Shown: positions 2,392 to 54,273, counted from the first letter of the stretch. The stretch: DNA of 64,000 nt from Pirellulales bacterium (GCA_018401745.1 JAGYJY010000008.1:31699-95698); one strand, 5' to 3'. The notes: generated from the sequence alone by a model not told the origin. Made by a program: numbers and translations.

Positions 2392-2953
2392 TCAGGCCGC
2401 GGACCTCGCGAAACCGCTCGTGGTCGGCACCGCGGCACCACTCAAAGAGCAGCGCCTCGCTGGTGGTGACCACCGCTCCGGAACACTCCAGGCGTCGGAG
2501 GGCGGTCTCATGGTCGATGGCACACCGACTGGCCACTGCATCGACCACCACAAACACCACAAGCCCCCGGGCCAGCAGGTCGAGGGCTGTCTGCAGAATG
2601 CAGACGTGCGTCTCAAGCCCGGCAAGAACGACCGACTCGATGCCGCCTCCCGGCTCGACCGCCAGGCATCCGCACCCAGCAGCGCTAAAGGCCAGCTTCT
2701 CTTCCGCAGGTGGCATGCAGGCGGCCACGCTCGGCAGCGAAGGGCCGAGCCCTTTGGGATACTGCTCCGTCAGCACGCGACGAACGCCAAGCATCTCAGC
2801 AGCCCGCGCCAGGCGAACGGTCCGCTCGACAACGGCCTCACATCCGGGCACCACCCTGGCGAGCCGTTCCTGGATGTCGATCACCGCCAGCAGTGTGGAT
2901 TCAGGCTGACTTCGCACGCGCCGCCTCCTTGGCAAACTCCGGCAGCGAGGCAC
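2378..2953 (-). CDS. Isochorismatase-family cysteine hydrolase
   Basis: TLLAVIDIQERL start motif, GLETHVCILQTALDL catalytic-Cys region, about 190 aa as typical for the family. Confidence 0.8.
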   Translation of the reverse strand: MPRCRSLPRRRRVRSQPESTLLAVIDIQERLARVVPGCEAVVERTVRLARAAEMLGVRRVLTEQYPKGLGPSLPSVAACMPPAEEKLAFSAAGCGCLAVEPGGGIESVVLAGLETHVCILQTALDLLARGLVVFVVVDAVASRCAIDHETALRRLECSGAVVTTSEALLFEWCRGADHERFREVRGLITGG

Positions 2954-3072
2954 ACCGCCCGCCGACCGGCCGCCAGGAGTCTACCTGCCCACGGCGAGAC
3001 TGCCCCAGCCGGGGCCACTCTGGCCTGTTTTCCCCATTGCCGCAGAGGCGTTTGGCTGGGTACACACATGCC

Positions 3073-5442: not shown

Positions 5443-6795
5443 CTACCGCCGGATGGTGTCCCATGTCAGGTGGCCGAAGAGGGTCTCGCGGCCTCGCAAG
5501 ACGTAGAACTTCAGCGGGCCAAACCGCTCCTGCTGCGCTCGATCGAGCACGTAGGTCACGTTTTCTGGCCGGATCGTCTCCCAGACATGCAGGCCCACCA
5601 GGATGTCTCCGGCCTGAATCCCCTGCTCATCGGCAGGCCCACCAGCCCGCACCTCAACAACCTCGAGCCCTCCCCGGTAGCGGTTCTGCAGCTGCCGAAC
5701 CCGCATCGCCGCCATCGCCTCAACCCGCAGGCCCAGCTCTCGCCAGCAGCGTTCATCAGGGGAGACGGCATCGGACCGCAGCTCCGCCAACGGCAGCTCG
5801 ATCTGCTCGTGGCCTTCGGCACGAACCACCTCCACGTTGACCCGCTCGCCAGCCTTACGGCCGAGCAGGGCCCGCTCAATGTCGAGCTGGCTAGCCACCA
5901 TCGCATTGCCGATCCTGACGATCCGGTCGCCAGCACGCACGCCAACCTGCTCCGCGGGGCTGGCCCGATGCACTGTGGTGACCACCGCGCCCCCCTGCAG
6001 GTCGCGGCGAGCCACGATGCCATGCCAGGTGTGGTCGAGCCGCTCCACCGAGAGCAGCTCCGAGACCACTTCCAGCACCTTGTCGACAGGGATCGCAAAG
6101 CCGATCCCCTGGGCTCCGGCCCGCACGGCCACATTGACGCCGATCATCTCCCCGTCAATGTTCAGCAGCGGTCCGCCAGAGTTGCCAGGATTGATGCTCG
6201 CGTCGGTCTGGATCAGATCGTCATACCGCTGCGTCCGGCTCACCTCGACCGATCGGTGCAGGGCCGAAATGATCCCCCTGGTCACCGTGTGCTCGTATCC
6301 GTAGGCATTGCCCAGCGCCAGCACGGTCTCCCCAATCATCAGATCGCTCGACGTGCCGATCCGAACGACCTGGAGCTGGTGCGGCGGACTGATTTTGATG
6401 ATGGCGAGGTCTGTGCGGAGGTCGTGCGAGATGAGGGTGGCGGAGGTGGTCGCCCCGCTCGCGAGCGTGACCTCAATCCGCTCCACGCCCTCGACGACGT
6501 GGTAGTTGGTGACGACATAGCCGCGGCTATCGATCACAGCGCCTGTGCCCATGCCGTTGACGCGTTTGGGCTCATCCCCTTCGCTTGAGATCAGTTTCTG
6601 GCCGTGGATGTTGACGACCGCATCCCGCTGCGACGCGATCGCATCCACGATCGCCGTGCGGCGGGATTCCGCGGCGACAGCCACCGGCTGCAGCACGCAG
6701 CACGCCAGGCCCAGGAGCATCGCGTTCACCATCGTGGCACGAACGCTCGCGACCCGACGGGCGAGTCGCGCAGGGAAGGGCTGACGTCGCGGCAT
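5443..6795 (-). CDS. HtrA/DegP-family periplasmic serine protease with PDZ domains
   Basis: Catalytic triad context: VVTNYHVV (His), DLAIIKI (Asp), TDASINPGNSGGPLLN (Ser). Two PDZ-like regions follow. Signal-like N-terminus from ATG 6795 (alternative upstream start at 6855). Confidence 0.85.
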   Translation of the reverse strand: MPRRQPFPARLARRVASVRATMVNAMLLGLACCVLQPVAVAAESRRTAIVDAIASQRDAVVNIHGQKLISSEGDEPKRVNGMGTGAVIDSRGYVVTNYHVVEGVERIEVTLASGATTSATLISHDLRTDLAIIKISPPHQLQVVRIGTSSDLMIGETVLALGNAYGYEHTVTRGIISALHRSVEVSRTQRYDDLIQTDASINPGNSGGPLLNIDGEMIGVNVAVRAGAQGIGFAIPVDKVLEVVSELLSVERLDHTWHGIVARRDLQGGAVVTTVHRASPAEQVGVRAGDRIVRIGNAMVASQLDIERALLGRKAGERVNVEVVRAEGHEQIELPLAELRSDAVSPDERCWRELGLRVEAMAAMRVRQLQNRYRGGLEVVEVRAGGPADEQGIQAGDILVGLHVWETIRPENVTYVLDRAQQERFGPLKFYVLRGRETLFGHLTWDTIRR

Positions 6796-6972: not shown

Positions 6973-8178
6973 TCAGCTCGGCCTCTGCACGAGCAGGGGA
7001 AGCAGCTGCAGCGCGAGGAAGCCAGTGAGGGCCGCCAGCACAACAAACGGCCAGACCGACATCAGCTGCTCACCCAAGGCCCAGCCAGCCTCGTGGGCGA
7101 TTCCTCCGATCACCGTGGCCACCACGAGGATCAGCAGCCCCACCAGCACAAGGCCGCAGCCGAACGACGCCATCGTGCCCTTGAAGGTTCCCATTTCGGA
7201 AAACTCTTCCTGATGCAGGTCGATGGCTCTGCCGCGGGCGAGGCTGCGGGGCACCGTCTCGGCGAGTTCGATCGCACGGGCGGCATCCGCCCAGGCAGCC
7301 GGGGGGGGCAGGGAAGCCTGCGATTTCACGGCAGCACCTCCGCAGGCCAGCCTCTCACAGAGGGTTTTGAGCATCACCTCACCGCCGTCAAAGGGCAGGG
7401 CCTCCTCCACGCCTTCCAGGTCCTGCCACGTCCAGACGGCGGGGCCCGCTGTGCTCTCGGGCATGGTCACGCGAATCTGGCCGGCTTCGCCGACGAGCGT
7501 CAGTTCTGCCGCTGGCATGTCGCCGCGAGCGACCTGCCAGCGAGCCGGAACCTGGGCCTCACCGCCAAACTCCACCGTCAGCGAGGCATAGGCGGCATCG
7601 GTGGAAACGCCGGCGAGCGTGGAGAGCCGCTGCGGGTCGCCGATCAGCAGCCGCACGAGGTCGGCATCACGAGCCAGCCAGGCAAGCACATGCTCCTTTG
7701 ACCGCAGCGGCAGCCGTCGCACAAGACCGATCGACTCCAGGCGGCCCAGCCCCCCCACGCCCACGAGCCCACCTTCAACGGCATCCACCAGTCTCTTCAT
7801 CAGCGGATGCTGACGGTCGGGCAAGAAGGGCACCAGCGGGCCGCCCACGTCGGCACGAATCATGTCGAGTTCGTAGGCAAGGAGCATCGACAGGGTCAGC
7901 GGCTGTGAAATCACCAGCGGACGTCCGGCCTGCACAAGGTGGCGGAGCCCTGCGGTGCGGGCATCGTCCCAGGCCTCAGCCCCGACGAGGATCGCATCAC
8001 AGGCCTGTTCGTCAACGAGCGCCTCCCACGAGTCCGCAGTTGCCACGGCTCCGCCACAGGCCTGAGCCCCACCGTCCGCGGGCAGAAAGCAGCCCGGACC
8101 GATCCGCATGCCCTCGCGGCAGGCCGCGCGAACGATCGCTTCCACCTGCGAATCCCAGCCATACACTCCAAGTTTCAT
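6973..8178 (-). CDS. Hypothetical membrane-anchored protein with a Gfo/Idh/MocA-like N-terminal region
   Basis: Starts MKLGVYGWDSQ, like oxidoreductase N-termini but without a clear GxGxxG. Two C-terminal hydrophobic helices (FGCGLVLVGLLILVVATVIGGI, VWPFVVLAALTGFLALQLLPLL). Confidence 0.55.
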   Translation of the reverse strand: MKLGVYGWDSQVEAIVRAACREGMRIGPGCFLPADGGAQACGGAVATADSWEALVDEQACDAILVGAEAWDDARTAGLRHLVQAGRPLVISQPLTLSMLLAYELDMIRADVGGPLVPFLPDRQHPLMKRLVDAVEGGLVGVGGLGRLESIGLVRRLPLRSKEHVLAWLARDADLVRLLIGDPQRLSTLAGVSTDAAYASLTVEFGGEAQVPARWQVARGDMPAAELTLVGEAGQIRVTMPESTAGPAVWTWQDLEGVEEALPFDGGEVMLKTLCERLACGGAAVKSQASLPPPAAWADAARAIELAETVPRSLARGRAIDLHQEEFSEMGTFKGTMASFGCGLVLVGLLILVVATVIGGIAHEAGWALGEQLMSVWPFVVLAALTGFLALQLLPLLVQRPS

Positions 8179-10887: not shown

Positions 10888-12417
10888 ATGCCTCAGGCTG
10901 TCGTGCCCCGGGAGGATCCAGTGAGTTCCCCTGCTGTCAGCGGATCGTTTGCGTCGCTTGGCCTTTCGCCAGCGGTGCTCAAAGCGGTCGACCGCATGGG
11001 ATTTACGGACATGTCGCCGATTCAGGCGGCATCGATCCCGCTGATCCTCGCCGGGCACGACGTCGTCGGCCAGTCCGAGACCGGCTCGGGGAAGACCGCC
11101 GCTTTCTGCATCCCGGCGATCGAGCAGGTCAACTCGGCCGAACGCTCGACCCAGGTACTTGTGCTCGCGCCCACACGCGAACTCGCTACGCAGATCACCG
11201 ATGAGGTTGGCAAGCTGACCGCCTTCGACAAGACGCTGCGGTCGGTAGCAATCTACGGTGGAGCCAGCTACGAGCGGCAGTTTGCCGAACTCAAGCGGGG
11301 TGCGCACGTGGTCGTGGGCACACCCGGGCGGCTGATGGACCATCTGGCCCGTGGCACGCTCGACCTCTCGTCGGTCAGAATCCTGATCCTCGACGAGGCC
11401 GACAGGATGCTCGACATGGGCTTCCGGGAAGATGTGGAGACGCTGCTCGCCGCCGCACCGGAAGGACGCCAGACGGTCTTTTTCTCGGCGACGATTTCGC
11501 CTCCTGTGAAGGCGCTCGTGCGGCAGCATTCCCGCGAACCGCAGACGGTGACGATCGCCAAAAAGGTGGCCACCGGACCTGCTCTGGTTGAGCAGGTTTG
11601 CTACGAGGTCCGCCACCATCAGAAGCTGGCCGCTCTGTCGCGGCTGATCGAGTTTCACGACGTTCGCAGCGGCATCATCTTCTGCAACACGCAGCGGATG
11701 GTGGAAGAACTCGCAGACTCCCTGACGGCCCGAGGCTGCTCCACCGAACCGCTCCACGGCGGCATGGCCCAGGCCCAGCGGACTCGCGTGATGGACAACT
11801 TCAAGAAGGCCGCCTTCCGCTTTCTTGTAGCGACCGACGTGGCCGGGCGGGGCATCGACGTCACAGACCTGGAGCTGGTGGTCAACTACGACCTACCCTT
11901 CGATGCCGAAGACTACGTCCATCGCATTGGCCGAACAGGGCGTGCAGGCCGCGGCGGCAGGGCAGTGACGCTCGTCTCCGGCGGAGGCATCCACAAGCTG
12001 CGAGCGATTGAGCGGTTTACCAAGACGACCATCCGCCGTGAGCAGATTCCAACCGCCGATGCTGTAGCAGCGCGGCGGGATGATGCCCTCCTGGCTCGCC
12101 TCCGCGAGACACTCGCTGCCGGCCCGTTCCCGGCCAAGTCCCGGCTTGCGGAGCGGCTTGTTGCCGAGGGACATCCACCGGCGGAAGTCGCTGCGGCGAT
12201 CCTGCAGCACTTCGCCCCCGCACCGGCAGCTGACACGGTCGACGAGTTCAGCGGGCGGCCCCAGGGTCGCAGCCACGGTCGCCCACCGCAGCGTCCGAGC
12301 CGCTTTCCCTCAGCTCACGGGGCGGGGCACCGCTCAGGCGGCCGAGGAGGCCCGGCCGTCGGCAAGCCGCGGAAGAAGGGCCAGGCCTATCACAAAAAGT
12401 CCCGCGGGACGCGATAA
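10888..12417 (+). CDS. DEAD-box ATP-dependent RNA helicase with a basic C-terminal tail
   Basis: Q-motif (FTDMSPIQ), Walker A SETGSGKTAAF, DEADRMLDMGF, SAT, ATDVAGRGIDV, HRIGRTGRAG. ATG at 10888, 22 nt after the RRM gene. Confidence 0.9.
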   Translation: MPQAVVPREDPVSSPAVSGSFASLGLSPAVLKAVDRMGFTDMSPIQAASIPLILAGHDVVGQSETGSGKTAAFCIPAIEQVNSAERSTQVLVLAPTRELATQITDEVGKLTAFDKTLRSVAIYGGASYERQFAELKRGAHVVVGTPGRLMDHLARGTLDLSSVRILILDEADRMLDMGFREDVETLLAAAPEGRQTVFFSATISPPVKALVRQHSREPQTVTIAKKVATGPALVEQVCYEVRHHQKLAALSRLIEFHDVRSGIIFCNTQRMVEELADSLTARGCSTEPLHGGMAQAQRTRVMDNFKKAAFRFLVATDVAGRGIDVTDLELVVNYDLPFDAEDYVHRIGRTGRAGRGGRAVTLVSGGGIHKLRAIERFTKTTIRREQIPTADAVAARRDDALLARLRETLAAGPFPAKSRLAERLVAEGHPPAEVAAAILQHFAPAPAADTVDEFSGRPQGRSHGRPPQRPSRFPSAHGAGHRSGGRGGPAVGKPRKKGQAYHKKSRGTR

Positions 12418-45299: not shown

Positions 45300-46125
45300 G
45301 CGGCAGGCTCCTCACCGTGAGACGTGGAGAGAGTGGAGAGGTCAGCGTCGTCATCGCTGACCGGCGTGGTCACCAACCGCACACCGGCCTGGGCAACCTT
45401 CTTCCGCCATGGCGGTGCGAGGCCCTCGTCGACCACGAGGCAGTTGATATCGCTGAGCCCACAGACGAGCGTCAGGCTCCGACGTCCAAACTTGGAGCTG
45501 TCGGCCACAACAATCACGCGGCTGCCAGCCTTGAGCATTGCCTGCTCGGTTTCGGCCAGCAGCAGATGGGCGTTGAAGAGGCCTTCCTCGGCGATTCCGG
45601 CAGCGGAGAGCACGGTCGTGGAGACGTGCAGCCGGCCGAGCAGTTCGTTGGCGTAGGGGCCGAGGCAGACGCCTGTTTTGGGTGAGACGTAGCCCCCGAG
45701 CAGAACGAGATCAGTCCGCGACTCCGAGACGAACAGGTTTGCCACCGGCAGGCTGTTGGTGACCACCTGCAAAGGCCTGCCGACAAGCTGGCGGGCCACT
45801 TCGTAGGTGGTGGTGCCGCCATCGAGCAAAACGGTCTCGCCATCCTCGATTTCTTCGGCGGCGGTAGCCGCGATCGCCCGCTTGGCCGCCCAGTTGGCTG
45901 GCTGCCGCTGGTCAAACTCCTCGAGCTTCGGGCTCGGCCACCGCGATAGACGGCTCCACCATGCGTCCGCCGAGCGATGCCCTGCTCCTCGAGGAAGTCG
46001 AGATCGCGACGAATGGTCGATTCTGAAACCGCCAGCTCGCGGACAAGTTCGTCCAGCGACGCAAAGCCGCGGACGCGGATCAGGTCGGTGAGGCGGTGCC
46101 GCCGTTGCTGGGAGTGTGCTGGCAT
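45296..46125 (-). pseudogene. DeoR-family transcriptional regulator of the BMC locus, frame broken once
   Basis: The HTH half (SLDELVRELAVSESTIRRDLDFLEEQGIARRTHGGAVY) is in ORF 45514..46209. The sugar-phosphate-binding half (KRAIAATAAEEIEDGETVLLDGGTTT...) is in ORF 45296..46174. One missing base near 45935-45940 joins them. The stop overlaps the pduL ATG as ATGA. Confidence 0.8.
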
Positions 46126-46367
46126 GGTGAAACCCCGAATGCCACCAGCATGACTCAACGCGATCATTTTGCAACCGTTTTCAATCGCGTCCCGCATGGT
46201 TTCAATCAAAAACTCACAAACGACTGCCAGGAAGCAACAAAAACGTGGCTCGCCACCACACTGCGCACTCTGCGCAAACCCTGCGGCCTCCCGTCGCCCC
46301 CAAATCTAGCCCACAAAAACCCGCAAGAAAGAAAACCACCAAAAAAGGCCACAATCAGACCGCTTCC
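46126..46367 (-). promoter_or_regulatory. Comparatively AT-rich upstream region of the deoR/BMC operon (candidate promoter/operator)
   Basis: A local drop in GC directly 5' of deoR. Contains a direct repeat of GTTTCAAT(C) (CCGTTTTCAATCG / TGGTTTCAATCA). No consensus promoter identified. Confidence 0.3.
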
Positions 46368-46775
46368 CGGGACGGGCCCGCGGGTGCCGCCCGCCGTGAA
46401 CGGGACGGGTCCGCGGGTACCGCGCCGTGAACGGGACGGGTCCGCGGGTACCGCGCCGTGAACGGGACGGGTCCGCGGGCCGCGAAGCGGCCGCGGCACA
46501 GCCGAGGTGCCTGCGGCACCCGTGGACCCGTCCCGCTTGCGTAGAGGCTGACCGGCCGCTGGCCGCCGCGTCCGCGAGCGGACAGGCCCGGCCTGCAAAG
46601 CGCTTCAGCGAGCGGGTGAGCCCGGGACCTGACCCGCCGGCGTACAGGAGCCGAGCGACGCCCGGAGGGCCAAAGCGCAAGCGGATATCCGAGCCGAGCC
46701 GCAGGCCGCCTGCGAGGGCCCGCAGCGAGCGTCCGGAGGGGCAGCCCCGGGCTCACCCCGAGCGGCCCACCCACC
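46368..46775. repeat. Composite GC-rich repeat element, copy A
   Basis: Three tandem units of about 31 nt (CGGGACGGGTCCGCGGGTACCGCGCCGTGAA). Next comes a long imperfect hairpin (GGGACGGGTCCGCGGG...CCCGTGGACCCGTCCC). A 3' module is shared with copy B (GGGTGAGCCCGGG, CCCGGAGGGCNAAAGCG, GGGCTCACCCCGAGCGGCCCACCC). The element ends at the purN stop codon. Confidence 0.8.
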
Positions 46776-47407
46776 CTACCGAGCCACCGGCACACCAGGC
46801 GGCAGCGGCAGGGCGCCGTGGTCGCCGCGGACAATCGCCTGGATTGTTGTGGGAAGGAGCTGGCACTCGGCCGTGAAGACACGGGCGGCGAGGGTGTCGG
46901 GGGTGTCGCTCGCCTCAACCGGCACGACGTGCTGGGCGAGCACCCGCCCGTTGTCATAGACCTCGTCGACGAGGTGCACGGTGCAGCCGGAGACCGTGCA
47001 GCCGCGTTTGATCACGGCCCGGTGCACGGCAGCACCATGAAAACCCTTCCCGCCGAAAGCTGGCAGCAACGAGGGGTGGATGTTGACGACGCGGCCGATG
47101 TAGTCAGCAGGGATTGCCAGCAGCTGCAGGTAGCCGCCAAGCACGACGAGATCGACATGCTGCTCGCGACAGGCGGCGAAGGCCCGATCGCTGACATCGG
47201 CAGCACTGCTCTGGCGGGGGTCGAGCACCTGCGTGACGAGCCCCGCGTTGCGGGCGATTGCCGTGCCACGGATGTCCTCCCGGCTGGCGACCACGAGCAC
47301 GATCTCCGCGTCGAGCCGGCCGTCGGCGATCCAGGTGAGCAGGTTTTCAAGTGTGCGGCCGCTGCCAGACAGGAAGACGGCCAGCCGCAGCCTGGCGGCA
47401 GCTGGCA

Positions 47408-47411
<4 letters not shown>
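46776..47411 (-). CDS. purN: Phosphoribosylglycinamide formyltransferase
   Basis: LAVFLSGSGRTLENL, NIHPSLLPAFGG, GCTVHLVDEVYDNG. Start is either GTG 47411 (GTGA overlap with the ileS stop) or ATG 47408. Confidence 0.85.
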
Positions 47412-50901
<3,490 letters not shown>

Positions 50902-50906
50902 GCGTC

Positions 50907-51742
50907 CTATAGTTCCGCCGCACCTGCATCACGAACAATCGCCGTGATGACCGCTCTCAGCTTTGGCTCCGCCGACCGGGCGACTGCGAGAATCTTCTCC
51001 ACGCTCGCCTCCTCGAGGGCATCCGGCAGGCACATGTCGGTGACCACCGAGAGGCCGAGCACCTTCAGCCCGGCATGCACCGCGACGATGACTTCAGGCA
51101 CCGTCGACATGCCCACCACATCGGCTCCAATCGTCCGCAGGAAGCGGTATTCCGCCCGCGTCTCAGGTTCGGCCCCGTGACCGCCACGTAGACACCCCGG
51201 TGGGCAACAAAGTTTTCCTGCCGGGCGATCTCCAGCGCTCGATCGATAAACTCCGGCGTGTAGGGGGCCGACATGTCGGGGAAGCGGGGCCCGAGGCGAT
51301 CGTCGTTGATCCCAATCAACGGGTTGCCGTTCATCAGGTTGATGTGGTCATCGATCACCATGATGTCGCCAGCACTGTAGTGCGGATTCATGCCGCCGCA
51401 GGCGTTGGTGACGATCAGCGTCTCCCCGCCAAGCCGCTTGAGCACACGCACCGGCAGGGTGATCTGGTCGAGCGGGTAGCCCTCGTAGGCATGCATGCGG
51501 CCCTCAAGCACGACCACCGGCACGCCTTCCAGCAGACCACAGACCAGCTGCCCGGCATGGCCATGGGCGGTCGATTTGGCGTAGTGAGGGATCTCCTCAT
51601 AAGGAATCACCACCCGCTCGGTCACCTGCTCGGCAACGCTGCCAAGGCCGCTGCCGAGAATGATGCCGACAGCGGGCTGGAGGGCCCAGCGGCTGGAAAT
51701 CGCCTGAGAGGCTTCTTCAATCTGGTCGTGGAGATGCAGCAT
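50907..51742 (-). pseudogene. Purine nucleoside phosphorylase (PunA-type), frame broken once
   Basis: GIILGSGLG, GRMHAYEGY and VTNACGG are in ORF 51065..51742. [19 protein letters not shown] follows in ORF 50907..51119. Adding one G near 51163-51166 restores [20 protein letters not shown]. Confidence 0.85.
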
Positions 51743-51814
51743 GTTGGTCCATCGGCTCGCGGAACGGCCGACCGGCAGTCGACCACGGGTGATCCAGCAA
51801 CAGAGACGCGGCCC

Positions 51815-52105
51815 CTACTTCTTTTTCCCAGGCGGCATCTCCGGCGTCTCTTCGTCGGGATGATCCCAGTCTGGATCGTCGGGCTCATCCTCGAAATCGT
51901 CGTCGAAATCGTCATCAAAATCGTCGAAGTCGCTCTCGTCGTCTTCGAGAGGATCGTCGATCGTGCCCTCATCGACACTGTCGTCGTCGTCATCCCCCGA
52001 GGAGCTCGCGACGGGCACAAGCGGCCCAGCGGCCCACCGCGAAAGCAGGCTCACGTCACTCCACCGATCGCGTCGCCGGGGAAAAAACACTGTTGTGCAA
52101 AGCAT
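51815..52105 (-). CDS. Hypothetical small poly-acidic protein (weak call)
   Basis: 96-codon ORF ending ...DDDDDSVDEGTIDDPLEDDESDFDDFDDDFDDDFEDEPDDPDWDHPDEETPEMPPGKKK. No Shine-Dalgarno sequence; start uncertain. Confidence 0.35.
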   Translation of the reverse strand: MLCTTVFFPRRRDRWSDVSLLSRWAAGPLVPVASSSGDDDDDSVDEGTIDDPLEDDESDFDDFDDDFDDDFEDEPDDPDWDHPDEETPEMPPGKKK

Positions 52106-52391
52106 GTGCGGATTCTCATAACAAGCCACCCGCAGGCTCAAAGCCCGCCGGACGTAAGAGAGTGAAGAGAAGCATTCTACCGATTCCTCGTCAACCCGCT
52201 GCCGCAGGCAAACCCGCTTTCCACCGCCTGTCCCTGCCGCAGCGATGCATTTCCTGCCAACGACGTGAGCGGGAAGACCGCGCGCGGGTGGTCCGGCTCG
52301 GCAGGCGGCAAAAGTCGCGTCGCTGGGCCAGGATAGGCCAAACGCTCCTCGAGCGTTCGCCGACCCGCCGAGCCTCCACTTTCCTGTCAAT

Positions 52392-53049
52392 GACGGGAAC
52401 GGGACGGTCCTGGGCCGCAAAGCGGATACACACGCAAGCGGGACGGGTCCTCGGCCGCGAAGCGGATACACGCAGCGGGACGGGTCCTCGGCCGCAAAGC
52501 GGCTCGCTGCCGAGTGCCTCCGGCACCCGAAGACCCGTCCCGTTCAATCCGCCTCCGGCACCCGAAGACCGTCCCGTTCAACCGCCTCCGGCACCCGAAG
52601 ACCCGTCCCGCTCGACCGCCCGCCGCACCGCACGCCGCCGACCCCACTCGGCCCTGTCCACCCACTCCCGGCCGCAGGCCGCCCTGCAGCGGACAGAACG
52701 AACGGGACGGGTCCTCGGGCCGCGAAGCGGCCTCGGCGAAGCCGAGGTGCCTCGCGGCACCCGAAGACCCGTCCCGCTTGCACGCCCCACCCCGCCCAGC
52801 CCCGCCTTCCCCGGCCGCAGATCGCCGCGAAGCGGCGAACAGGCCGTCCCTAAACCGTAAGCGAGGGGTGAGCCCGGGCCGAATGAGCCGGCCTTGCAGT
52901 CGAGCGAAGCCCGGAGGGCGAAAGCGAGAATGCACGAGTGAGCGAAGCCAGGATGGCGAAGCGAACGCTCGGCGAATCGGCTTGGGCTCACCCCGAGCGA
53001 CCCCGAACGCTCGGCGAATCGGCCTGGGCTCACCCCGAGCGGCCCACCC
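52392..53049. repeat. Composite GC-rich repeat element, copy B
   Basis: Three direct CGGGACGG(G)TCCTCGGCCGC(G/A)AAGCGG units are followed by three inverted CTCCGGCACCCGAAGACC(C)GTCCCG units. A further complete hairpin sits at 52703-52776. The shared 3' module follows, with a 2 x 41-nt tandem duplication (52964-53045). The element ends at the argJ stop codon. Confidence 0.8.
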
Positions 53050-54273
53050 TCAGGTGTGATAATCCGCATTCAGATGCACGTATTCCGCCGTCAGGTCGCT
53101 GGAATAAAAGCGGATCGTGCCCGGGCCGTCACCCACCTCGAGCCGAATCTCGGTCTCGCGGTTGTCTCGAATCGACTGCGACACGGCGACCGCATCAAAG
53201 GCGACCGGAGCGCCGGCCGTGAAGAGCAGGGTGCCGTTGACGTGCAGGGTGAGCTGGTCGGCCGCGAAGGAAACTCCCGCATAGCCCGCGGCTGACACAA
53301 TGCGGCCCCAGTTGGGATCGGCGCCCGAGATCGCGGTTTTCACCAAAGGACTGTCGGCAACGGTGCGAGCGATCTGGCGGGCGGCATCGCGGCTGGCGGC
53401 GCCGGTGACGTCGATTCGGATCACATGCGTGGCCCCTTCGCCATCGTCGGCGATCTCACGGGCAAGCGTCCGGCAGGTCTCGGTGAGCAGCCGGCCAAAC
53501 TCGTCCAGGTCGTGGCCCTCGAGGCAGGAGCCGCCGGCCGCAGCGTTGGCCAGGAGGAGCACGGTGTCGTTCGTGCTGGTGTGGCCATCGACGCTGACGC
53601 AGTTGAACGTCTCCTCGCAGGCTTGGCGAAGCAACCGCTGGCCGTCGTCCACCGCCAGCGGGGCATCCGTGAGCACGATGCCGAGCATGGTCGCCATCCG
53701 CGGGCCCACCATCGCGGCCCCTTTGGCGACGCCTGTGATCGAAATCGAGCGATCGCCAGCGATGAAGGTTGAGCCGCAGAGTTTTGGACGGGTGTCGGTG
53801 GTCATCATGCCGCGGGCAGCCAACACCAGAGACCTCTGGTCGTCGCTCAGCAGCTCCGCCGCCTGACCGATCCCGGCCAGCAGCGTGGGCATGGGCAGAA
53901 ACTCGCCGATGATACCCGTGGAGAGCACGAGCACTTCCGAGGCTGCTGCTCCCACGCTGTGAGCAGCGGCTGCCGCCATCGCCTCGGCGTCGGCCAGGCC
54001 GCGGGGGCCCGTGCAGGCGTTGGCGTTGCCGGAGTTGACCACGATCACTCGAAAGCCCTCGCCCGGCGTCCGCTCGCGGTCGTAAGCGACAGGAGCGGCA
54101 TAGACGAGGTTCGTGGTGTAGACGCCCGCGGCCGTTGCTGGTCTGTCCGAGACAAACAGCGCGACATCCTCCCGGGTGGGATTGCGTTTGAGGCCCGCGT
54201 GAATACCAGCCGCTCGAAAGCCGGCAGGCAGGTCAGGAACGGGAAGCTGCAAGGGGGTCTCAGCGATCGGCAT
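53050..54273 (-). CDS. argJ: Bifunctional glutamate N-acetyltransferase / amino-acid acetyltransferase
   Basis: GFRAAGIHAGLK, the autoproteolytic region ATMLGIVLTDA, and TNDTVLLLAN. ATG at 54273. Confidence 0.9.
   Translation of the reverse strand: MPIAETPLQLPVPDLPAGFRAAGIHAGLKRNPTREDVALFVSDRPATAAGVYTTNLVYAAPVAYDRERTPGEGFRVIVVNSGNANACTGPRGLADAEAMAAAAAHSVGAAASEVLVLSTGIIGEFLPMPTLLAGIGQAAELLSDDQRSLVLAARGMMTTDTRPKLCGSTFIAGDRSISITGVAKGAAMVGPRMATMLGIVLTDAPLAVDDGQRLLRQACEETFNCVSVDGHTSTNDTVLLLANAAAGGSCLEGHDLDEFGRLLTETCRTLAREIADDGEGATHVIRIDVTGAASRDAARQIARTVADSPLVKTAISGADPNWGRIVSAAGYAGVSFAADQLTLHVNGTLLFTAGAPVAFDAVAVSQSIRDNRETEIRLEVGDGPGTIRFYSSDLTAEYVHLNADYHT

Follow-up and report, generated by a model that had tools for sequence, protein, structure and literature searches.

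A mosaic of at least four non-coding repeat families behind argJ in a Pirellulales bacterium

The argJ spacer and its repeat islands

The subject of this report is the spacer between argJ and the next gene downstream, a small acidic open reading frame (ORF), in a Pirellulales bacterium (GCA_018401745.1, JAGYJY010000008.1:31699-95698). The whole analysed stretch of 64,000 nt is called the window, and positions are counted from its first letter. In an earlier note on this DNA the block 52392-53049 was described as copy B of one element, copy A of which lies behind purN. Copy B is not a single element but a mosaic composed of at least four independently recurring non-coding repeat families, designated here E1 to E4. 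Within a small group of planctomycete genomes these families are met at many unrelated loci, in orders that recur but vary from locus to locus. BLAST against loci from public assemblies (numbered with the prefix L) showed that repeat DNA spans 52248-53047 and extends leftward beyond the block first described. The features of both islands and of their surroundings are collected in Table 1.

The repeats that had been listed in the earlier note were recovered at their positions and far beyond chance. Tandem Repeats Finder reported three arrays in the block, 52400-52502 (period 37, 2.7 copies, 89%), 52516-52620 (period 34, 3.1 copies, 93%) and 52962-53045 (period 42, 2.0 copies, 95%), and one in copy A at 46368-46479 (period 31, 3.5 copies, 95%), and the forward and inverted arm pairs together with the additional complete hairpin were found by repeat search. 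The 11-mer core CGGGACGGGTC is present in the 64-kb window at 13 sites with at most one mismatch, against 3.4 expected, and none of 100 shuffles held as many. Copies A and B are the only two repeat islands of the window, and the core sites outside them (2070, 43180 and 55000 only) are all at chance level. The suggestion that the block of three forward and three inverted units (the 3+3 block) can fold as a composite palindrome was upheld, as its minus-strand RNA forms a nested composite hairpin of -146.6 kcal/mol (z = -5.1). Both islands indeed end beside minus-strand stop codons, with GAGCGGCCCACCC 0 nt from that of argJ in copy B and 3 nt from that of purN in copy A. A 2 x 41-nt duplication had been described at the argJ stop; the tandem pair, with a period of 42 nt, is the doubled stop-proximal arm of E2.

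Table 1. Repeats, genes and other features around the two repeat islands of the window
Feature	Position	Strand	Remarks
Three E1 beta-half units, copy A	46368-46462	+	period 31, 5' of the complete unit
Complete E1, type II, copy A	46463-46535	+	from fold and family alignment
E2 subtype a, copy A	46607-46763	-	157 nt, 14 nt from the purN stop
purN	46776-47411	-	stop 46776-46778; Pfam Formyl_trans_N
ileS	47408-50901		spread over three frames, breaks near 48260 and 49720-49796
pnp	50910-51742		spread over two frames, break near 51170
Small acidic ORF	51815-52105	-	96 aa, next gene downstream of argJ; orthologue in L062 at 11374-11664
Conserved motif TTGACGAGGAATCGGTAGAATG	52172-52194	-	5' of the acidic ORF; far limit of the ancestral spacer; shared by the window, L061 and L062/L063
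E4-type module(s)	52248-52399		unit 52288-52377, about 90 nt; BLAST 84-96% identity to L086, L105, L146, L178, L122, L036
Two direct E1 alpha-half units	52400-52475	+	tag GCAAG, 17-nt arm CGGGACGGGTCCTCGG(G), mini-hairpin CCGC-RAA-GCG, linker ATACACGC; same half-unit and linker in L026, L037, L043, L056
Central complete E1, type I	52476-52542	+	67 nt, six 1-nt deletions against the 73-nt consensus
Two E1 beta-half units	52543-52612	+	TTCAA(T)CCGCC, hp3 3' strand, 3' arm CCCGAAGACCCGTCCCG; beta-half arrays in L026, L042, L046, L047, L048
Spacer	52613-52702		E3-like fragment 52668-52696; weak BLAST matches to L028, L048, L074
Solo complete E1, type II	52703-52776	+	74 nt; fold z = -7.5 (+ strand), -10.7 (- strand)
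E3 hairpin	52811-52848		CCGGCCGCAGATCGCCGC-GAA-GCGGCGAACAGGCCG; adjoins E2 in L013, L026, L028, L045, L057, L061, L074, L086
E2 subtype b	52860-53040	-	181 nt, argJ sense; longer through duplicated stop-proximal arm
2 x 42-nt tandem duplication	52962-53045	+	doubled stop-proximal arm of E2b
argJ	53050-54273	-	407 aa; stop 53050-53052, 9 nt from the E2 arm; Pfam ArgJ E 7e-132; protein P0001 100% identical

The positions of deoR, pnp and argC agree with the gene context of the earlier note. The frames of ileS and pnp are interrupted; the syntenic orthologue L062, used as a reference, encodes an intact IleRS of 1160 aa and PNP of 278 aa, and the interruptions are most likely assembly indel errors rather than signs of pseudogenes. 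With such errors in the window, the (G)/(C) length differences of one base between repeat units, which may be sequencing artefacts, and the six bases missing from the central E1 should not be over-read. It could be argued further, from the three frameshifts in ileS and pnp and from the single-base length differences within repeat units, that the repeats themselves are spurious duplications of an error-prone long-read assembly. This explanation is excluded by independent short-read assemblies, which show the same modules in the same order; only the 1-nt indels stay suspect. L058 and L059 come from the same species (95-98% identity), and the E1-E3-E2b composite was met in L074, L086 and L158 at 85-88% identity.

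The product of the small ORF is extremely acidic (DDFDDDFDDDFEDE...PPGKKK) and gave no match in a Pfam search; the ORF is kept between argJ and pnp in all syntenic relatives. The motif at its 5' side, TTGACGA-N9-GGTAGAATG, is found also in L061 (~6840) and L062 (~11290), and the relatives otherwise have no common intergenic sequence. Its spacing does not fit the -35/-10 boxes of sigma-70, and it may represent a promoter of another type or an operator.

Architecture of the repeat families

The E1 consensus of 73 nt, CGGGACGGGTCCNCGGG-CCGC-GAA-GCGG-CCTCGGC-NNN-GCCGAGG-TGCC-TYC-GGCA-CCCGNNGACCCGTCCCG, folds into a gap-free four-way junction in which each base is used, either in the outer stem of 17 bp or in the hairpins hp1, hp2 and hp3 (4, 7 and 4 bp), each closed by a triloop. 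Folding with DNA parameters gave this junction as the structure of lowest energy for either strand (z = -6.8 and -6.1), and the half-units by themselves have no significant fold. An alignment of 31 copies has 97.3% of its 992 pair cells paired, and at five pairs both sides have changed. In a sample ascertained by the interior of the element, variation is limited to the three loops, positions 12/13/61/62 and the covarying pair 46/56 (T-A to G-C), the last of which favours a local hp3 over one long hairpin; both arms are exact in 49 of the 61 copies. The arm variant CGGGTCGGG is met together with CCCGACCCG, which is compensatory. Stem mismatches are compatible with G-T pairing on one strand of the element in 60 cases and on the other in 15, and these cases are not independent, being mostly inherited (39 are the same C12-A62). 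The favoured strand is not the mRNA sense, and the bias is no more than a hint that the element acts as a folded single strand, in the manner of the REP/RAYT, IS200/IS605 and attC systems.

Each half of E1, when read inward, is a unit of about 32 nt in which a tag is followed by the 17-nt arm and then by a C-GNA-G mini-hairpin. Two such units, diverged and inverted, are placed around the palindromic hp2, and the matching halves make E1 an inverted doublet of REPIN-like design. The tags of the two sides differ from each other (GCAAG against (CGGA)TTGAA), and the flanks GCAAG and TTCAA(T)/TTGAA were present in 76 of the 77 distinct copies that remained after removal of duplicate contigs. With respect to the tags the interior can lie either way round ("flip/flop"): in type I (49 copies) the alpha tag adjoins hp1, and in type II (27 copies) the interior is turned round between the GCAAG and TTGAA tags. 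The type II copies form a coherent subfamily with the hp3 loop TGC, therefore a single inversion followed by spread is sufficient to explain them. Arrays of half-units are present at many loci of other genomes; their breakpoints lie just past the hp1 or hp3 triloop, and AATACACGC and CCGCC serve as linkers. Since breakpoints and linkers elsewhere are identical, the 3+3 layout of the window is a family trait. A CRISPR array was considered and rejected, as the "spacers" measure 7-13 nt and are conserved between units and genomes.

E2 is known from 12 distinct copies of 139-181 nt, or 209 nt where E1 has been inserted, and reads GCTCGGGGTGAGCCC...GGGCTCACCCCTCGCT in gene sense. Its terminal stem comprises about 25 bp, and 8 of 35 consensus pairs keep pairing through two-sided changes. 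It is E2, rather than E1, that abuts stop codons: a TGA or TAG triplet precedes the E2 arm GCTCGGGG by 4-9 nt in most of the 12 copies (5-9 nt in about half), and ORF analysis confirmed the stop of a long GC3-rich ORF for five of them (L013, L040, L045 and both copies of the window). E3 is a small hairpin that usually follows E2. In L057 (675-700) the upstream gene has its stop codon within the E3-like CGGCCGCTGACCGCCGC, and its reading frame appears to be closed by the repeat. The E4 unit is repeated five to six times in tandem with a 99-nt period at L122 (717-1249), and the orthologous L036, with 99% flank identity, holds one copy.

Spread among genomes and turnover at orthologous sites

An arm-based scan of species-representative genomes placed the 73-nt E1 on more than 30 contigs of one planctomycete metagenome-assembled genome (MAG; CALCGM01), often at contig ends, and on one small contig binned as Chthoniobacterales. 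An interior-based scan of metagenomes added about 80 further copies from a handful of other samples. One identical 73-mer is common to seven loci, which suggests recent spread. Searches for a mobile vector among viral contigs, plasmids and phages gave no repeat match. In Rfam the window had no match at the gathering score and the part 45900-53300 no relevant match at E <= 1. A literature search with the core sequence returned chance matches only, and no paper on planctomycete repeats like E1-E4 was found.

Arm-pattern matches in Actinomadura/Spirillospora and other non-planctomycetes were set aside because their interiors are unrelated to E1; in seven Actinomadura/Spirillospora loci (L004, L007, L019, L020, L025, L041, L049) the pattern is a conserved 61-nt inverted repeat within long syntenic, apparently coding regions. 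Hairpins of 63-78 nt with the same GCGGGACGGGTCC stem, other interiors and A-run/T-run flanks like those of bidirectional terminators were seen at L001 (1161-1223), L050 (2990-3052), L027 (1420-1492) and L044 (5277-5354). Their hosts are planctomycete MAGs of Planctomycetaceae, Isosphaeraceae and Humisphaera, and these hairpins may be related to the E1 arm or may have given rise to it. The Isosphaeraceae locus L027 carries also a different repeat of about 172 nt, three times within 8 kb (2880-3052, 6261-6432, 7234-7405).

Syntenic contigs were reached through ArgJ homologues, and the spacer was measured from the argJ stop to the TTGACGA-N9-GGTAGAATG motif. It has 855 nt in the window, where E1, E2, E3 and E4 are all present. 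In L061/L060 (ArgJ 88%) it has 519 nt, measured in L061 as L060 ends within E2, with E2, E3 and E4 present and E1 absent. In L062/L063 (ArgJ 85%; L064 is identical as far as it reaches) it is reduced to 63 nt with a small native hairpin only and no repeats. Even within the species the spacer is not constant: the 42-nt unit, doubled in the window, is single in L058 (95% nucleotide identity). The doubled form is found also at the unrelated locus L158, so the doubled variant itself propagates. Downstream of purN the relative L062 has E2 and no E1. The alignment of the window with L062 extends there into E2, and the stems of the two E2 copies differ by compensatory changes. Among metagenome contigs, L152 contains 53 nt of half-units more than the orthologous L104 (96% flank identity), L012 and L180 differ in E1 copy number, and L011 and L090 match at 99.5% identity as far as E1 reaches and diverge after it, E3-E2 being present in one only. 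The mosaic is thus dispensable and dynamic, with families that come and go at orthologous sites.

These comparisons bear on the view that the CGGGACGGGTC array is a binding platform for a putative DNA-binding protein (nucleoid-associated, gyrase or ParB-like), which would insulate neighbouring transcription units topologically. Even in the interior-ascertained copies the 11-nt arm hardly varies, it stands in direct and inverted arrays at a regular spacing of 31-40 nt, and it is established that BIMEs of E. coli bind gyrase, IHF and Pol I (reviewed in PMC3733652). A platform of this kind is nevertheless very improbable here: no candidate protein was identified, the covariation of CGGGTCGGG with CCCGACCCG points to pairing rather than to recognition of a duplex, copy number differs between near-identical strains, and orthologous sites exist without the mosaic.

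Placement beside genes, function and origin

The expectation of the earlier note that copies would prefer gene 3' ends and be rare within genes was borne out. Only 1 of 77 E1 copies lies inside a confident ORF, as compared with an ORF coverage of the loci of 88% (greedy non-overlapping calls, with 18 ambiguous 5' extensions); a count of 30/77 copies within ORFs proved to be an artefact of stop-to-stop shadow ORFs, and a protein-coding reading of the repeats was rejected. The gene ends that face E1 are 3' ends in 69 of 97 cases by one version of the gene calls and in 65 of 104 by a stricter one (p = 0.014), a much stronger bias of about 35 of 39 flanks having been inflated by duplicate contigs and loose ORF calls. 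Convergent contexts number 11-12 and divergent ones 1-4. The orientation of E1 relative to transcription is random (20 vs 22 when defined by the interior; 26 vs 16, not significant, when defined by the tags), and the idea of a unidirectional terminator, taken from the T-rich TTCAAT tail, was abandoned on this ground.

That the island is structured, repeated and located at gene 3' ends, as the earlier note had held in proposing an intergenic terminator or insulator, is correct; a dedicated role of this kind is unlikely. In a rival reading the elements would be primarily functional RNA of the 3' untranslated region (3'-UTR), either factor-independent or Rho-assisting terminators or mRNA-stabilising barriers to 3'-exonucleases, recruited repeatedly because the terminators of the organism use the hairpin. 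This possibility, which deserves some but not much credit, agrees with the position of E2 next to stop triplets, with a stem of about 25 bp that shows compensatory changes even between the apparently orthologous purN copies, with the preference of E1 islands for gene 3' ends and convergent pairs, with the minus-strand fold of the 3+3 block (z = -5.1) and with the GCGGGACGGGTCC-stem hairpins of other planctomycete MAGs and their A-run/T-run flanks. However, a terminator scan found no U-tract terminator in either mosaic, the tails being TTCAAT or CTTGC. E1 is oriented at random to the sense strand, and G-U-compatible mismatches track the element's own strand and not that of the mRNA. The E2-E3 module folds like its shuffles (z = 0.18 and -1.09 in DNA of 66% GC), and whole-module folding was dropped as a sign of function for this reason. 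The orthologous argJ spacer of L062 has no mosaic and keeps its own small hairpin, and a stack of 800 nt with up to nine hairpins far exceeds what termination needs. The sole canonical-looking T-run hairpin near copy A (46242-46262, minus strand) is situated beyond the mosaic, toward deoR, therefore the purN transcript may traverse the whole repeat island.

The reading preferred here, with a probability of roughly 0.72, is that non-autonomous palindromic repeats of the REP/BIME/MITE kind have gathered in the spacer that separates the argJ stop from the region upstream of the next gene, where they form a BIME-like mosaic. It is founded on dispersed and sometimes identical copies, extragenic placement, modular mosaics, presence or absence at orthologous sites and copy-number change between strains. 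REPs are defined as imperfect palindromes of 20-40 nt with one hairpin and a conserved GTAG (or CGTC) tag, unpaired, at one end, and a survey covering Planctomycetes lists only REPs of the GTAG type there (PMC3733652). Like the REP, REPIN and BIME sequences of Proteobacteria (served by RAYT, an IS200/IS605-type HUH Y1 transposase), E1 is an extragenic, GC-rich imperfect palindrome present in tens of copies, mostly behind genes or between convergent genes. As in a REPIN, an inverted doublet folds into a long hairpin; as in a BIME, several repeat types are clustered in alternating orientation with conserved linkers (AATACACGC, CCGCC). REPs and E1 also have in common short asymmetric tags external to the stem, a "top" strand recognisable by its mismatches, and vertical persistence combined with local turnover. 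The differences lie in the tags, which are GCAAG and (CGGA)TTGAA and not GTAG/CGTC, in the length of 73 nt and the gap-free four-way junction with three triloop hairpins, in the flip/flop forms and the tandem half-unit arrays, and in the lack of a RAYT gene among the 20 flanking ORFs scanned.

With MITEs (Correia/NEMIS of Neisseria, ERIC/IRU of enterobacteria, RUP/BOX of pneumococcus) E2 shares terminal inverted repeats of about 25 bp, co-transcription with the upstream gene and division into subfamilies; E1 has such repeats too in its 17-bp arms, and the mosaic is as modular as BOX (boxA-B-C). Unlike MITEs, E2 has no identified target-site duplication or parent insertion sequence (IS), and it stands in one orientation a few bases from the stop codon in most copies. 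The MIRU/VNTR sequences of mycobacteria resemble the repeats described here in forming short tandem arrays between genes, of 31-42 nt for half-units and the E2 arm and of about 99 nt for E4, which abut or overlap stop codons and vary in copy number between close strains (L104 vs L152; L036 vs L122; window vs L058). In contrast to them, the tandem units are halves of palindromes, forward and inverted arrays face each other, and no conservation of a coding frame was seen. Integron attC sites are likewise imperfect palindromes (57-141 nt) just 3' of an ORF, recognised as a folded single strand, with structure kept over sequence and strand-specific extrahelical or mismatched bases. However, the core sites RYYYAAC/GTTRRRY are missing, as E1 ends in GCAAGC.../...GTTCAAT and E2 in GCTCGGGG...CCCCTCGCT, the neighbours are housekeeping genes (argJ, purN, ileS), often convergent, and there is no integrase and no co-oriented cassette array; on these grounds an attC reading of the locus was rejected. 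The inverted terminal repeats of parvoviruses, T-shaped hairpins in flip and flop forms, have a long stem around small palindromes with the interior in both orientations between fixed outer sequences, which is an analogy of form only, as E1 is chromosomal, multi-copy and internal and has no replication-origin context.

If the islands are accumulations of non-autonomous repeats, the elements would multiply by copy-and-paste of single-stranded hairpin DNA with an enzyme acting in trans, for which the RAYT/IS200-type HUH transposase offers a precedent. Half-unit arrays and the 2 x 42 duplication might then lengthen and shorten through replication slippage or unequal recombination, and insertions would persist only where they are harmless, mainly between a stop codon and the next signal. 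Copies transcribed together with the gene would give very stable stem-loops in the 3'-UTR, where pausing of the polymerase or a block of 3'-exonucleases is possible, as for REPs; such an effect at the RNA level (termination, mRNA stabilisation) is plausible as a secondary one, a by-product or a later co-option.

Several observations weigh against this account. A Pfam search of 20 ORFs flanking the copies found no transposase, HUH or Y1_Tnp domain, but only metabolic genes or nothing. There is no consistent direct repeat at the ends of E2 that could be a target-site duplication, no clean filled/empty E1 pair at high identity, and no IS with such ends in the fetched DNA. Both classical features of a REP, the GTAG/CGTC tag and the single hairpin of 20-40 nt, are absent. 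E2 is located closer to stop codons than passive tolerance predicts, which may indicate targeting or function, and E2 at purN appears to have been retained since the split of the window and L062 lineages (78% nucleotide identity), with compensatory changes that preserve its stem, which is equally compatible with selection on structure and with a selfish element. Moreover, the context statistics depend on crude gene calls, made from open frames with a filter on codon-position GC, and the contigs of the L152/L104, L012/L180 and L011/L090 contrasts are short-read metagenome contigs, possibly chimeric at repeats. It has also been considered that E1 and E2 are moved by a structure-specific enzyme, which would insert the folded strand, a four-way junction or long hairpin, at the foot of a native terminator right after stop codons; the flip/flop forms and the half-unit breakpoints past the hp1 and hp3 triloops would then reflect hairpin-primed or nick-and-restart copying and not slippage. 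This is held to be a rather improbable variant.

The best reading of E1-E4 is that of an undescribed repeat family in a poorly surveyed phylum, of the familiar REP/BIME- or MITE-like kind, rather than of a device dedicated to regulation. Catalogues of small palindromic repeats come for the most part from Proteobacteria. The range of architectures known for REPIN-like replicators would be extended by a family with different tags, a unit that folds as a four-way junction, subfamilies of flip/flop type and arrays of half-units, and this family could help to find the enzyme that moves such elements in planctomycetes. For annotators and binning pipelines it is of relevance that these repeats break short-read assemblies, many copies being found at contig ends, and that they inflate intergenic regions more than ten-fold and create long spurious ORFs. 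Variation of copy number between strains makes them a possible typing marker.

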